Part shown: positions 1 to 4,285 of the stretch, in pieces
Layout of the letters: the number at the start of each line of letters is the position of its first letter
How positions within the stretch are numbered: the first letter of the stretch is position 1
From: a virus
Taxonomy: Duplodnaviria; Heunggongvirae; Uroviricota; Caudoviricetes
Virus record (IMG/VR): IMGVR_UViG_2728369591_000004
Span: 1-4,285 of that record
DNA: 4,285 nucleotides
Strand: one strand, 5' to 3'
The notes under the pieces: generated by a model
Told to the model about the DNA's origin: nothing
The model's input: the letters and a program-made list of their open reading frames with translations, nothing else
Databases searched by the model: none
Made by a program: the position numbers and the translations under genes

Positions 1-46
1 GCACCTCAAAAACACCATCATACACTAAATCAGTAAGTTGGCAGCA

Positions 47-328
47 TCACCCATCCGAGCATCTGCGTTTCTTCGCGATAGAACGCAGTGAGATACCTAT
101 AACAAAGTGAGCAATGATCAGTTCATATTCTTCTGGTTTATATTTACGCAACCGCACCACACAACCGTCTATCATGATCCCTTCATCATCATCACACTGG
201 AGGCGTGACTTTTTACCGTGTGGTAAAAGCCCCTTGAAGCCTGCCGCGATCGGCTGCCAGTCCACTCCGCTGTTATCTGCTGCTGCCCATGCTCCCCAGC
301 GGTCCAAAACCTCGTACATATCACGCAT
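47..328 (-). CDS. Q: Phage antitermination protein Q-like (phage 21/82, QuuD-like family), 93 aa, possibly C-terminally short
   Basis: ATG at 328-326 preceded by GGAGAG with 5-nt spacing; the ORF track's TTG at 343 is probably an artefact. Translation MRDMYEVLDRWGAWAA...IAAGFKGL...SRLQCDDD...GC..RL.K...CSDG matches, from memory, the conserved pattern of DLP12 QuuD (MRDIQMVLERWGAWAA...SIAAGFKGL...CCDDD...CCSDG). Stop TGA at 49-47; QuuD as I recall it is about 127 aa, so this copy may lack about 30 C-terminal residues. Confidence 0.7.
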   Translation of the reverse strand: MRDMYEVLDRWGAWAAADNSGVDWQPIAAGFKGLLPHGKKSRLQCDDDEGIMIDGCVVRLRKYKPEEYELIIAHFVIGISLRSIAKKRRCSDG

Positions 329-345
329 CAAATCTCTCCACAAAA

Positions 346-735
346 TCAGGCCAGCACACCAATTGCCAGCGCGCGATCGATAAATCGAAAAATTAGCTCC
401 AGTTGGGAACCATACTTCTCTTCAAATGCCACAGTGTCCACATGCAACTCGTCGTGATGCTTTCTGCACAAAGGCAATACAAAGAGGTCATGCGCTTTTG
501 TACCCTGGCGACGCGCCTTACGCGTTAACCAGCCTTCTGCTTCCAGCCGTGCGATAGCCGTTCTGACGGTACTCATCCCCGCGCCAATCTGGCGGGCAAT
601 GGTTTCAATTGATGGCCAGCACACACCTTCGTCATTACTGAAATCAGCCAGGCGGGCCATAATTGCCACACTGGATAATTTCATGCCTGACGCTGCGCAA
701 CCATCCCATACATAGCCGGTTAATTTAGTGCTCAT
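346..735 (-). CDS. HTH_36-type DNA-binding protein resembling the N-terminal domain of phage replication initiators (O-like), with an atypical Cys/His-containing C-terminus; possible deletion fusion
   Basis: ATG at 735-733 with AGAGG about 6 nt upstream. Residues about 18-80 (LSSVAIMARLADFSNDEGVCWPSIETIARQIGAGMSTVRTAIARLEAEGWLTRKARRQG) fit the PF13730-like pattern (LaLadhan.dG.cwPS.etLA...G.S.rTV.RAl..LeE.GLl). The C-terminal 45 aa (LPLCRKHHDELH...) do not continue the usual replication-protein pattern. Stop TGA at 348-346, 17 nt before the Q start. Confidence 0.55.
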   Translation of the reverse strand: MSTKLTGYVWDGCAASGMKLSSVAIMARLADFSNDEGVCWPSIETIARQIGAGMSTVRTAIARLEAEGWLTRKARRQGTKAHDLFVLPLCRKHHDELHVDTVAFEEKYGSQLELIFRFIDRALAIGVLA

Positions 736-1083
736 GACCGACCTCTATTTCCCTGAATTTACGACGAAACTGTTCGAGCGGGCTGAAGCACTCATGCTCA
801 TAGCCTTCGCGGAGGTAGATAACCCGTTGTGTTTCCGGCTCCCAACGAATGACTCTGACGGGCACTCCGTAGTGATCTTTGAACCAGCGGTTAACTTCTC
901 GCAAAGGACTGTCTCCTTCTGCCGGTTGAAATCCCCCACAGCCCACTCAGCAAAGCTGTGGGTTACAATTTCCCTGTCACCTGGTACATTCACTGCATAG
1001 CAATACTCCACCTTCGCTTTTCCACCCGGTACAGGAAGCGCAATCAGTTGCGAGTGACGGTAGTGTGTTGTTAAACTGTTCAT
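725..1083 (-). pseudogene. Small phage protein of unknown function, interrupted by a -1 frameshift at a G5 (plus-strand C5) run at 933-937
   Basis: ATG at 1083-1081 overlaps the upstream TGA (ATGA coupling), with GGAGA upstream. The N-terminal 50 codons in this frame look protein-like ([50 protein letters not shown]). After the G5 run, that frame turns Ser-rich and low-complexity, while the -1 frame (725..946) reads [53 protein letters not shown] and ends with TAA overlapping the next gene's start. One extra G would join the two frames into about 120 aa. Confidence 0.4.
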
Positions 1084-1631
1084 GCGTTAGTTTCTCCACA
1101 GTCACGACACGCCACGGCGCCCGGAGCTGCACACTCGCGGGCGTCATTACTTTCTGAAATGCAAAATATTTTGTAGACCAGTGCTGCATGCTCCTGCAGC
1201 TTCGAAATTGAGAGATACAGCTCGTCGTTAATTGCTGTCTTCTCATGCGGTTCCACTACACCGTCTTCAATTGCTGAACGAATCTGTTTTGAATAACTGC
1301 CGATCTGTTCAATGACCTCCAGCAGGCGTTGGTTGATATCGGCGTTGTCCACATCCTCGACATCAGGAAGAGACACAAAGACGCCATTTGCAGACTGCGC
1401 CACAGCGTCAGCAATGAAGTGAGTTCCACCAGCACGTTGCAAAATCATTGCCCATCCCAGCGGGAAAATCTGATCGCCATCGGCACGAAGGCGGTTAAAT
1501 AATGCGTTCTCTGTTACATCCAGCCAGTCAGCAGCTTCAGCGTACCCCCCCGGCAACGCTGCGATAGTTTTTCTGACAGCTTTCACGTACCACTCAGGCT
1601 GTTTTTCTACTTTCCAGTGATGCTTACCCAC
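1080..1631 (-). CDS. Phage CII-like regulatory protein (putative Phage_CP76 / YdaT-type), 183 aa
   Basis: GTG start at 1631-1629 preceded by AGGAGG with 6-nt spacing; it overlaps the cro-like stop by 8 nt. Its position directly downstream of cro matches lambda cII and the Rac/CP-933P ydaT arrangement. The segment [35 protein letters not shown] resembles, from memory, the HTH region of 186-CII/CP76-family proteins. The C-terminus carries a Cys-containing tail ([14 protein letters not shown]). Family assignment is moderate; gene presence is high. Confidence 0.55.
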
Positions 1632-1884
1632 GGTTCACCTCCTGTTCCTGTGGTTTAAACCCATTCTGGTTTTGGCTAGATTGAAAACGTGCCGGATAAA
1701 GAATCTGCATTTCGCTGACTTCACCCTTAAAAAAATTGGCTAATCGTTCTGCAAGCTCGATAGATGGAATCTGCTCCAGCCTCTCAATACGACTCAACGT
1801 CGCTGGATTGACTTGAACACCCGCAGCAACATGCTGCAAAGTGAAACCATGCGCCTTACGCACATTTCGTAATGGTGATTGCAT
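1624..1884 (-). CDS. cro: Cro-like XRE-family HTH transcriptional regulator, 86 aa
   Basis: ATG at 1884-1882 with AGAGGG 3 nt upstream. The segment LRNVRKAHGFTLQHVAAGVQVNPATLSRIERLEQIPSIELAERLANFF is a typical Cro/C1-type HTH. It is divergently transcribed from the CI-like repressor across a 97-bp operator-rich intergenic region. Confidence 0.8.
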   Translation of the reverse strand: MQSPLRNVRKAHGFTLQHVAAGVQVNPATLSRIERLEQIPSIELAERLANFFKGEVSEMQILYPARFQSSQNQNGFKPQEQEVNRG

Positions 1885-1981
1885 ATGCCCTCTAAATATT
1901 GCGCGTTATGCATGTCATTTCACGCAATTATTTTGCGCAAGTTGATTTGCTTATCACGCAATAAAGAAATGTAATAAACGC
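1885..1981. promoter_or_regulatory. OR-like divergent promoter/operator region between cro and cI
   Basis: The 97-bp intergenic region contains 15-bp sites with TTGC-N7-GCAA symmetry: 1899-1913 TTGCGCGTTATGCAT, 1913-1927 TGTCATTTCACGCAA and 1947-1961 TTGCTTATCACGCAA, plus the palindrome TTGCGCAA at 1933-1940. TCACGCAAT occurs at 1920-1928 and 1954-1962. Exact -35/-10 elements were not confidently assigned. Confidence 0.6.
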
Positions 1982-2674
1982 ATGAACATAGGAAACCGAG
2001 TCAGACAACTTCGCCAAGCGAAGAACATGAAAATCGCCGATCTCGCTGAAGCAATAGGAGTAGATGCGGCGAACATCTCGCGCTTAGAAACGGGTAAGCA
2101 AAAACAATTTACCGAACAAACACTGAGTAATATTGCCAAGAGCTTAGGTGTTGATATTGCTGATCTCTTTACCTCTGCCCACAAAAGTAATACTGTATAT
2201 AAAAACAGTAATAATGAGGATGTTGCGCAGGTGAAGGATGTGTTCCGTATTGAAATGCTGGATATCAGTGCCAGTGCGGGAAATGGCCTTATCCAGGGCG
2301 GTGATGTCATTGATGTGATTCATGCCATCGAATACAGAACTGATAATGCTGTATCAATGTTCGGCGGACGACCAGCCAATCACATCAAAGTTATCAACGT
2401 TCGTGGGGACAGTATGTGTCCAACCATTGAGCCAGGAGATCTCATCTTCGTTGATATCAGCATCAATCAGTTTGATGGTGATGGTATATATGTCTTTGGT
2501 TTTGATGACAAAATATACGTTAAAAGACTTCAAATGATTCCTGACAAACTGCTGGTGATTTCTGATAACCAGATTTACCGTGAATGGGGAATTACTAGCG
2601 AAAACGAACACCGATTCATGGTCTTTGGAAAGGTCTTAATCAGTCAGTCGCAAACCCTTAAGAGACATAATTAA
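1982..2674 (+). CDS. cI: Phage CI-like repressor: N-terminal XRE HTH plus C-terminal S24 (LexA-like) autopeptidase domain, 230 aa
   Basis: N-terminus RVRQLRQAKNMKIADLAEAIGVDAANISRLETGKQ is an HTH. The C-terminal domain has the catalytic Ser in GDSM (S144, nt about 2411-2413), Lys in VKRL (K181) and a candidate Ala-Gly cleavage site (A99-G100 in ISASAGNG). The SD before ATG 1982 is weak (aataaacgcATG), so the transcript may be leaderless or short-leader like lambda PRM. Stop TAA at 2672-2674. Confidence 0.9.
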   Translation: MNIGNRVRQLRQAKNMKIADLAEAIGVDAANISRLETGKQKQFTEQTLSNIAKSLGVDIADLFTSAHKSNTVYKNSNNEDVAQVKDVFRIEMLDISASAGNGLIQGGDVIDVIHAIEYRTDNAVSMFGGRPANHIKVINVRGDSMCPTIEPGDLIFVDISINQFDGDGIYVFGFDDKIYVKRLQMIPDKLLVISDNQIYREWGITSENEHRFMVFGKVLISQSQTLKRHN

Positions 2675-2693
2675 CCTCAATATCCCATCCATC

Positions 2694-2716
2694 GGCCACC
2701 TAAAGGTGGCTTTTTA
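2694..2716 (+). terminator. Rho-independent terminator downstream of cI
   Basis: Stem GCCACC (2695-2700), loop TAAA, stem GGTGGC (2705-2710), followed by TTTTT (2711-2715), about 20 nt after the cI stop. Confidence 0.7.
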
Positions 2717-2728
2717 TTACCTATAAAT

Positions 2729-2765
2729 TTGCATATCTCGCAAATATCACTTGCATATCTCGCAA
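2729..2765. promoter_or_regulatory. OL-like operator pair: two direct copies of TTGCATATCTCGCAA
   Basis: Identical 15-mers at 2729-2743 and 2751-2765, 22 bp centre to centre. Each has TTGC-N7-GCAA symmetry and matches the OR site 1947-1961 (TTGCTTATCACGCAA) at 13 of 15 positions. TTGCAT could serve as a -35 and TATCTT (2774-2779) as a weak -10 for rightward transcription. The position after cI parallels lambda OL/PL. Confidence 0.5.
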
Positions 2766-2931
2766 TTTAATTTTATCTTTTGTTCCAGACCAACTACAGG
2801 ATTACAACAAAATCTGGTTGCAACACGGTGCATGTGTCGTAAGCAGTCAGTAAATGTCAAAAACGAACAGGCAGGACGCCCACGAAGTAGCCGCCTGGGG
2901 CATATGAAGTCCAGGATGATTCGTTAGCAAC

Positions 2932-2954
2932 AAAAAAGCGTCCTACAGGACGCT
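2932..2954 (-). terminator. GC-rich hairpin with a U6 tract on the minus strand: intrinsic terminator for the antigen 43 remnant transcript
   Basis: Stem GCGTCC (2938-2943), loop TACA, stem GGACGC (2948-2953); plus-strand A6 at 2932-2937 gives UUUUUU after the hairpin on the minus strand. The stop codon of the minus-strand ORF (2945-2943) lies inside the hairpin. On the plus strand the same hairpin lies directly 5' of the boxA-like element. Confidence 0.5.
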
Positions 2955-2955
2955 T

Positions 2956-2968
2956 AGCTCTTTAACAA
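2956..2968 (+). promoter_or_regulatory. boxA-like antitermination element (GCTCTTTAACAAT)
   Basis: Plus-strand GCTCTTTAACAAT matches the rrn/lambdoid boxA consensus (T/C)GCTCTTTAACAA at 12 of 12 positions after the first base. It sits in the leader between the OL-like operators and the strong RBS/ATG at 3001-3016, where a nutL site is expected. Confidence 0.4.
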
Positions 2969-3000
2969 TCTGGTCCCCATCAACAAGTAACTGATAACTT

Positions 3001-3050
3001 GAGGAGGTGTGAAATGCACAAAACAGAACCAAAAATCGTCGCGCCCGGAT
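3001..3050 (+). other. Orphan translation start: strong RBS plus ATG and 12 codons (MHKTEPKIVAPG) of a truncated first early-left gene, possibly N-like
   Basis: GAGGAGG (3001-3007), 6-nt spacer, ATG 3014-3016. After about 12 codons the plus-strand sequence becomes the antisense of the antigen 43 remnant (junction about 3050); the remaining ORF to 3190 is low-complexity antisense. Identity cannot be determined from 12 residues. Confidence 0.3.
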
Positions 3051-4285
3051 GCCCAGACGGAAGCCGGCACGCACATGTTGTGCACTGCCATGCCCGAACT
3101 TCACATAACCGGCGTTATCCTGGCCGTCATCCAGGGAGAGTCCCTGCCAGGTGTACTGCAGTTGCGGCTCCAGCATCAGATTGTCAGTGATACTGAAGGG
3201 CAGACCGGTTTCCAGTGAGCCCAGCCAGCCCCAGCCCCGGGCGCGGAAGTCGTTATTGTCCGATGACGCTTTCATGCTGTGGCGGGTTCCCTGTGCCACA
3301 ATGTCAGCCCACAGGCCGGAGGACGTGTGTGTCAGATTCAGGTATCCGCCCAGGCTGCCGGCATCATCCCGGACCGTGCCGGCGCGGGAACCGTCATCAT
3401 CCTTAACATCAACGGAAGAATGGCCTGCAGCACCATATACCCCTGTCGTCAGAGACATACCGGCAACCTCTGTTCTCAGCAGGTCACCCTCCAGACGGAC
3501 GAAGCCATAGCTGCCGCTGCTTTCCGGCGTGGCTCCACGGGCAATACCCCCCATTCAGCGTGGTATCCAGTGCGTGACCATGTACAGTCTGGTCGCCGCC
3601 GGCATAAACCACAGTGGTATTTGCCGTTCCTTCAGCAGCCACAATCTGACGACCATTTTTATTGATGGTGGTGCGTACGGCATCTCCGTAGACGGTCTGC
3701 CCTGTATCACCATTTTCTGCATCCGGTCCCCCTTCCGCGCCGGTATTCACAACCGTGTCGGTTGCCATTGCGCCGGATTTGACGGCCTGCCAGCCCTTCT
3801 CATTAATGACGGTACCCGTTGCAATCCCGCCTTCATGTACCCACTGCTCACCGCCGTTCAGAGTGGTATTCACTGCCTGCCCCTGAAGGCTCTGTCCGCC
3901 TCCGGCACTGATAACCGTGTCTGAAACGCTTCCTCCGGCATTCACTCTCTGAAGACCACCACCGGTGACAGTAGTGTTGTTGGCGGTACCGCCATTTTGT
4001 ATCCATTGGCCGCCGGTATTCGCCTCGTTATCCGGCCCATACTCCAGCCCGGTACTGATGGTCATTCCGTTGGCCGTACCGAGAACAATCTGGTTGTCAT
4101 GATTTGTCAGTGTTCCGCCGCTCACGGTTTCTCCCGCCTGTACGACCGTGTCAGCAGCCAGTGCCGGGACTGATGTGACAGCAGCAAGAGACAGCACAAT
4201 CGCCACACCGGCGCATTTTCCCCGTGAGCGGGCCAGTTCGGAAGCCACCACCAGGGTGCCCGTAATGTGATTCCATACCAGCCTG

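Follow-up and report, generated by a model that had tools for sequence, protein, structure and literature searches.

The locus

We have analyzed a stretch of 4,285 nucleotides (nt) from a virus of the Caudoviricetes, positions 1 to 4,285 of IMG/VR record IMGVR_UViG_2728369591_000004, which is referred to here as the window. A stretch 100% identical to it lies in the chromosome of Escherichia coli PCN061. The window represents what is left of an SfII/SfIV/e14-like lambdoid prophage that has been cut by IS1 and fused to a pseudogene for antigen 43 (Ag43). Our subject is a short module in its leader, comprising a hairpin and, immediately 3′ to it, a boxA. A first-pass annotation of this DNA had remarked on the pair and likened it to nutL, suggesting an atypical N-utilization site.

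The module lies downstream of an intact cI-like repressor gene (1982-2674, plus strand), the product of which has helix-turn-helix and Peptidase_S24 domains. This gene is followed by an intrinsic terminator (2694-2711, plus strand), found in a terminator scan and annotated as such in phage SfII, and then by two identical OL-type operators, TTGCATATCTCGCAA (TTGC-N7-GCAA), located by motif search at 2729-2743 and 2751-2765. The operators confirm the placing of the leader in the first-pass annotation, and their motif recurs on the OR side at 1947-1961. A putative PL promoter on the plus strand (TTGCAT, 17 nt, TATCTT; 2751-2779) can be placed from the sequence, overlapping an operator. It is too weak to be detected in a consensus promoter scan of the window; at the corresponding position the related phages SfIV and PhiR29 carry a PL that is close to consensus. 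Given the order of repressor, terminator, operators and leader, the plus strand of the window therefore corresponds to the leftward (PL) direction of lambda, and the position of the interval matches that of nutL on the maps of lambda and P22.

The hairpin as a terminator for the opposite strand

The hairpin has a stem of 8 bp, AAGCGTCC/GGACGCTT (2936-2943 paired with 2948-2955), and a loop TACA (2944-2947). The six G+C-rich pairs with a 4-nt loop described in the first-pass annotation are real, and form the core of this stem. On the plus strand it is calculated to fold with -12.6 kcal/mol (z = -3.7). When the minus strand is read the hairpin is followed by UUUUUUG, with the U-tract corresponding to an A-run at 2932-2937, and the complete element (2932-2955, minus strand) is the best terminator-like site in a scan of the window. 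The scan flags it on the minus strand only, both here and in PhiR29. The earlier suggestion that the hairpin serves the opposite strand is thus upheld.

The asymmetry between the strands extends to the stem itself. Fifteen of 17 distinct hairpin variants have a C.A mismatch in the plus-sense RNA where the minus-sense RNA has a G.U wobble, and these 15 have mean folding energies of -7.3 (plus strand) and -11.4 kcal/mol (minus strand). In the window copy a derived T gives full pairing of the stem whichever strand is read, with -11.6 kcal/mol on each. The A-run that provides the minus-strand U-tract is kept in all the variants, and the loop of the Klebsiella hairpin is UUCG when read on the minus strand. 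Convergent open reading frames (ORFs) in the relatives end 9-223 nt from boxA. From these sequence features the hairpin is very probably the native intrinsic terminator of a convergent cargo gene. The first-pass annotation had assigned it to the Ag43 remnant. That assignment does not hold, as the intact phages show the terminator closing a convergent phage cargo gene; its tie to the Ag43 remnant is an accident, because a deletion has replaced the cargo gene with Ag43.

Conservation of boxA

The boxA, GCTCTTTAACAA, is present once in the window, on the PL-sense RNA (2957-2968, plus strand). The first-pass annotation was right in calling it exact, although its coordinates (2956-2967) were one base off. 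The sequence matches all 11 positions of GYTCTTTAANA, the published working consensus for boxA in gamma-proteobacteria (Baniulyte et al. 2017, PMC5725501). Around 0.02 matches would be expected in the window if one mismatch is allowed and both strands are counted, in agreement with the earlier judgment that it is improbable by chance.

Conservation was assessed in 24 distinct copies that were collected without using boxA as a seed. Variation is absent from ten of the 12 boxA columns and is confined to position 2, with a single exception (A), and to the consensus N, which is C, A or G in a scan of species genomes. The same 24 copies have 10 different loops and four linker states (A, C, T or none). 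Directly 3′ to boxA is a conserved extension, TCTGG (2969-2973, plus strand), in which TC never varies and TGG is conserved at 92-96%, and beyond ~10 nt the conservation fades to noise. Within this leader family boxA never occurs without the hairpin. By this pattern boxA is under selective conservation, which neither coincidence nor simple hitch-hiking with the hairpin explains well, and it is likely to be a functional Nus site.

An 18-mer, GCTCTTTAACAATCTGGT, is identical in the early leader of phage T7 (nt 813-829), between the E. coli promoter A3 and gene 0.3. T7 nt 813-829 comprise boxA plus the extension, GCTCTTTAACAATCTGG, on the sense strand of a leader that uses promoters for the host RNA polymerase. 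No boxB is seen 3′ of the T7 boxA, and T7 is not known to have an N protein.

Other occurrences of boxA were noted. One hairpin-less group reads GCTCTTTAACAATCTGGACTTGATTTGAGTC, seemingly boxA plus boxB; it lies inside minus-strand coding sequence (...VQIVKEL...), and was therefore rejected as a coding coincidence. Comparison by BLAST of hairpin-less boxA contexts with the left end of T7 revealed no similarity. The supplementary table of Baniulyte et al., which gives 11-mers only, has a prophage 'cI' entry from E. coli 55989 with GCTCTTTAACA. Two other viral contigs contain repeated boxA units, two in one contig (718, 1107) and three in the other (706, 989, 1611). Each unit has a consensus boxA (GCTCTTTAACAA plus TCTGGATAG or CATGGATAG), a possible hairpin, a ribosome binding site (RBS) and a small gene, and these contigs may represent early regions served by more than one stand-alone boxA; neither resembles the left end of T7 by BLAST.

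The module in related phages and its coupling to a convergent gene

The hairpin and boxA are also found together in SfIV, Kati, 569R4, 689R6, PhiR29, PhiR49 and Klebsiella Kp4882. Thus boxA is kept at the homologous position in intact relatives, a point on which the first-pass annotation had made its proposal depend. Different parts of the window leader align with different phages. Positions 2600-2925 have 99.4% identity to phage SfII, and ~2855-3057 have 95-97% identity to SfIV, Kati, 569R4 and 689R6. Positions 2859-2973 are common to PhiR29 and PhiR49, the divergence of which starts directly after boxA, and the hairpin and boxA alone (2930-2971) have 90.5% identity in Klebsiella phages, where they lie behind another leader. 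By these alignments the leader of the window is a mosaic.

What follows the module is a gene on the opposite strand. SfIV and Kati have a small ORF and then an opposite-strand gene of 144 amino acids (aa); the opposite-strand gene of PhiR29, PhiR49 and the Klebsiella phage ends ~20 nt past boxA. We scanned a viral contig collection with three independent seeds, using the hairpin alone, boxA alone or a conserved upstream RNA (see below) alone. The upstream-RNA seed gave 96 distinct leaders, comprising 31 with the hairpin and a perfect boxA, one with the hairpin and a degenerate boxA, and 64 with neither. The dominant downstream ORF is on the minus strand in 30/31 module contexts compared with 14/65 of the others (Fisher p = 4e-13). 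Among species-representative genomes across the Enterobacterales a convergent gene follows the module in 21 of 22, the genera being Escherichia, Shigella, Citrobacter, Enterobacter, Kosakonia, Raoultella and Buttiauxella, together with Scandinavium, Mangrovibacter, Sodalis and Symbiopectobacterium. The RNA antisense to the convergent gene that follows boxA in the relatives has a median length of 750 nt (range 488-1524).

The cargo proteins fall into five unrelated clusters. Judged by eye only, some look membrane-bound, one looks secreted and others look cytoplasmic. PADLOC found no match to a defense system among them, and in Pfam and PHROG scans the only matches were to PHROGs without assigned function. 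On its other side the module is preceded by leaders of at least four unrelated types. With unrelated leaders on one side and variable cargo on the other, the module is therefore a constant junction at a variable, convergent cargo slot. In lambda and P22, sieB occupies the same slot in the same orientation, just past N or gene 24.

The region of the window is matched at >=80% coverage in 585 of 5,426 complete E. coli genomes. A contig titled Chryseobacterium sp. 18061 (Bacteroidota) has the complete enterobacterial leader RNA with the hairpin and boxA; this copy is probably contamination or a mislabelled contig.

A conserved three-helix RNA upstream of the module

The promoter-proximal part of the leader contains an element that the first-pass annotation overlooked, a conserved structured RNA at 2859-2926 (plus strand). 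It is recognized by covariation, and the window copy matches the covariance model with 98 bits. There are three helices, P1 (2863-2867/2920-2924), P2 (2870-2872/2878-2880) and P3 (2894-2898/2911-2915). In the alignment 95.9% of the cells are paired and eight of the 13 pairs exhibit double changes, which was matched by none of 500 shuffles, while slid controls reached at most 48% pairing. An alternative from RNAalifold, pairing a 3′ UUCG with an internal CGAA, was rejected in favor of the 5′ closing stem; it has no covariation, and 83.9% pairing. The element has a fixed length of 68 nt and recurs in many temperate phages (SfII, SfIV, SfV, ST64B, SPN3UB, mEp237, phiNP, ZF40 and phages of Yersinia and Pantoea), and in SfIV, PhiR29 and many contigs its start lies a few nt past the -10 element of a strong PL.

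Rfam has no match to this RNA, nor to any other part of the window at E up to 1. Short motifs resembling putL and putR of HK022 could be seen by eye. Homology with put was considered and rejected, as the covariance model finds no match to HK022 putL/putR or to the annotated putL-like RNA of HK639 at E up to 10. Nor did the model find a second copy in SfIV, the PR operon included. The leader RNA is therefore a positional analogue of put that lies outside the put family, and a candidate for a new cis-regulatory RNA family.

Three further observations concern this RNA. Many contigs have its first two helices (the homologue of 2859-2915) followed by a different conserved tail, GGATGAGGTGGAGAGATTAACGCGCATCAGGTGTAAACGTTCCGCTGGCCGGCGATAAGGCAAA, and the second half of this tail is the leader that stands ahead of the hairpin and boxA in Klebsiella, Buttiauxella and Citrobacter copies. 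This sharing suggests a larger modular RNA system. Weak matches to the model (E about 2) occur at 403-468 of the window (minus strand) and at 34446-34511 of SfIV, in the coding region upstream of Q, and most likely reflect chance, the DNA at the two places being homologous. Lastly, on the minus strand at 2867-2883 there is a weaker terminator-like hairpin with a U-rich run that overlaps helix P2; PhiR29 has it too. It may provide a reserve terminator for antisense transcripts, or be incidental.

The truncated prophage and its fusion to Ag43

At the left end of the window an IS1 terminus (1-52) adjoins a truncated gene for a Q antiterminator (47-343, minus strand), and the insertion cuts the prophage on this side. 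The left part contains further gene fragments on the minus strand, and a CII-family gene (1080-1631; Phage_CP76) and a cro-like gene (1624-1884) on the same strand.

On the other side of the module lies the start of a phage ORF of 68 aa, identified by alignment with SfIV and Kati and annotated in Kati. Its RBS (GAGGAGG, 3001-3007) and first 12 codons (3014-3049, plus strand) are present, with the ATG at 3014 lying 45 nt past the end of boxA as the first-pass annotation had reported. The ORF matches phrog_1744, of unknown function, and a Pfam scan gave no match. It is interrupted at codon 12 by the junction with Ag43, and SfIV and Kati are colinear with the window through 3050. Beyond it is a remnant of an Ag43-family autotransporter gene (3051-4251, minus strand) that is frameshifted and lacks its 3′ end. 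GGAT at the junction (3047-3050) is common to both partners, so that the junction resembles a microhomology-mediated deletion or fusion.

In the window a deletion has removed the cargo gene together with the remaining early-left genes, Ag43 sequence stands in their place, and the module here is a relic. If PL fired in the window its transcript would enter the Ag43 pseudogene antisense, while RNA leaving the pseudogene would run into the phage terminator.

A proposed role for the module

The anatomy of the module, its strand asymmetry, its coupling to a convergent gene and the selective conservation of its boxA are established here. We favor the reading, with a probability of about 55%, that the module combines the terminator of an opposite-strand cargo gene with an N-independent boxA that shields the PL transcript from Rho. 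It would then be a junction, with two strand-specific parts, in the early-left (PL) operon of N-less lambdoid phages. On the minus strand the terminator would halt transcription coming from the cargo gene, which is presumably expressed in the lysogen, before it could enter PL, the operators and the repressor gene antisense. The C.A mismatch weakens the PL-sense stem in most copies, and so transcription from PL should be obstructed weakly. On the plus strand boxA would appear in the PL transcript just ahead of 0.5-1.5 kb of untranslatable antisense RNA. There it would bind NusB/NusE and nucleate a host complex (NusA, NusG and SuhB) without N, in the style of the leaders of ribosomal RNA (rrn) operons and of clustered regularly interspaced short palindromic repeat (CRISPR) arrays. 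This complex would guard the PL transcript from Rho as far as the early genes that lie downstream.

Some observations weigh against this reading. The antisense stretch contains 22.2% C and 21.4% G, which as a compositional proxy gives no clear C-rich, G-poor signature of Rho loading. By a crude ORF rule 14/65 boxA-less leaders also face a minus-strand ORF, and boxA may therefore be dispensable. It could be redundant if the upstream RNA were a put-type antiterminator that already suppressed Rho. Nus factors bound to boxA can also promote Rho termination, for example in suhB and hisG (PMC5725501). Finally, copies of the module are linked by descent and recombination, and the counts given above overstate the number of independent events.

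A wider scheme can be offered tentatively, and we regard it as possible but doubtful. In N-less lambdoid phages (SfII, SfIV, SfV, ST64B, phiNP and relatives in the Enterobacterales) two RNA devices using host factors only might replace N and nut. One would be a put-like, protein-independent three-helix antiterminator, and the other a portable anti-polarity cassette of one-way terminator and boxA that was added with each convergent cargo insertion.

Alternative readings

The best surviving alternative, which we nevertheless consider unlikely, is that boxA has no function in the plus-strand RNA. The 12-mer would then be kept as part of the cargo terminator or 3′ untranslated region (UTR), or as a recombination junction, and its match to the consensus would be coincidental. 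Its location in the 3′ UTR of the convergent gene and its constant association with the hairpin would both be expected, and exact matches to boxA do arise by coincidence in coding sequence elsewhere. However, a match at 11/11 positions of GYTCTTTAANA beside a terminator is very improbable by chance, and variation is tolerated where the consensus has N (plus the one A at position 2) while the loop, linker and flanks drift. Moreover, the module is retained with five unrelated cargo families and several leader types, and the sense-strand leader of T7 has the same boxA and extension with neither hairpin nor convergent gene.

It is rather improbable that boxA acts negatively, repressing translation of the downstream ORF or promoting Rho termination and so limiting read-through from PL. 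The precedent is suhB, where a boxA <50 nt from the start codon represses translation and triggers Rho termination (PMC5725501), and the SfIV-type copies, the window included, have boxA 45-46 nt from the RBS/ATG. Yet most variants of the module have no plus-strand ORF after boxA, the convergent gene beginning 9-30 nt away, and translational repression is therefore not the general function. In addition, the early-left genes past the cargo gene still need expression from PL.

We give similarly little credence to a bipartite antiterminator, in which the three-helix RNA would modify the polymerase in a put-like manner or bind a factor, with boxA adding the Nus proteins. The two elements lie 30 nt apart in one leader, the RNA is strongly conserved and covarying and in many phages begins only a few nt past PL, and these phages lack N. 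But 64/96 leaders with the RNA have no boxA, and the module is also found behind leaders that lack the RNA (Klebsiella, Sodalis, Mangrovibacter and Symbiopectobacterium). As each occurs without the other, the leader RNA and the hairpin with boxA are separable modules.

The least probable reading is the nutL-like one of the first-pass annotation, now largely refuted, by which an N-like phage protein would bind the hairpin as an equivalent of boxB and antiterminate PL with boxA and Nus factors; the position is that of nutL in lambda and P22, and the boxA is nearer to the consensus than that of lambda, CGCTCTTA, but boxB lies 8-9 nt after boxA in lambda and P22, whereas here the hairpin is 5′ and nothing conserved folds on the 3′ side in three contexts, the loop varies freely (10 variants), the plus-sense stem is mismatched in 15/17, the following ORF has no match to an N-like family, SfIV, SfII and SfV are reported by the authors of the SfIV study to lack N, and two thirds of the leaders with the same upstream RNA have no module. 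GYTCTTTAANA has a single match in the whole SfIV genome and a single one in the window; since SfIV has only the one boxA there is no nutR partner. Four of five defining nut features tested are thus absent, boxA on the sense leader RNA being the one present. The remark in the first-pass annotation that hairpin followed by boxA is the order of rrn leaders rather than of nut sites is borne out by comparison with lambda, P22 and rrn.

Significance

Full-text literature searches, of incomplete coverage, found no functional study of the T7 boxA, and no description of the arrangement of the module, of the 17-mer outside T7 or of the leader RNA. Antitermination by boxA and Nus factors without N is already known in rrn operons, suhB and CRISPR arrays, and the boxA of temperate phages is familiar chiefly as half of an N-dependent nut site. 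What looks new here is the proposed N-independent boxA/Nus antitermination in a phage early operon, tied to a one-way terminator. If the anti-Rho reading is correct, it shows how phages without N escape polarity caused by Rho, and how an essential operon can accommodate 'moron' or exclusion genes in antisense orientation without being broken. Given the frequency of the region in E. coli genomes and its spread through the Enterobacterales, it would then bear on the reading of prophage induction, Rho silencing and the targets of Nus factors.

Comparison with known systems

The module resembles nutL of lambda and P22 in its map position, in the presence of boxA and in the convergent gene (sieB) just inside the PL operon. 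Unlike those sites it lacks a boxB after boxA and a partner site, and its phages have no N gene; membership is rejected. The upstream RNA resembles put of HK022 and HK639 as a structured RNA of ~65-70 nt just past PL in phages without N. While put has two side-by-side stem-loops, this RNA has three helices closed by a stem, and no copy in the PR operon.

The 5′-UTR of suhB (Baniulyte et al. 2017, PMC5725501) shares with the SfIV-type copies a consensus boxA <50 nt from a start codon. There the outcome is repression and Rho termination, whereas most copies of the module have no downstream ORF on the same strand. The T7 early leader shares the 18-mer, promoters for the host RNA polymerase and the lack of a visible boxB. 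Unlike that of the module, the T7 boxA has no adjacent opposite-strand terminator or convergent gene, and is followed by translated genes.

The rrn leaders (boxB hairpin, boxA and boxC, with NusA, NusB, NusE, NusG, S4 and SuhB) are alike in having a hairpin before a consensus boxA on the sense RNA. A segment of 13 nt, GCUCUUUAACAAU, is identical to what we take to be the boxA region of E. coli rrn. Antitermination in rrn operons requires no phage protein, and shields a long untranslated RNA from Rho. In the module, by contrast, the hairpin serves as terminator for an opposite-strand gene and in most variants its sense-RNA stem contains a mismatch; the RNA to be protected is antisense to a phage gene rather than an rRNA precursor, and no G/U-rich boxC is seen.

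The closest functional analogy is provided by the CRISPR leaders. A stand-alone boxA before CRISPR arrays recruits Nus factors and blocks Rho on the untranslated arrays (Stringer et al. 2020, PMC7665894). Like the boxA of the module it stands alone, directly ahead of a long transcript that is not translated. The module differs from it in lying within a phage early operon, and in its coupling to an opposite-strand terminator.

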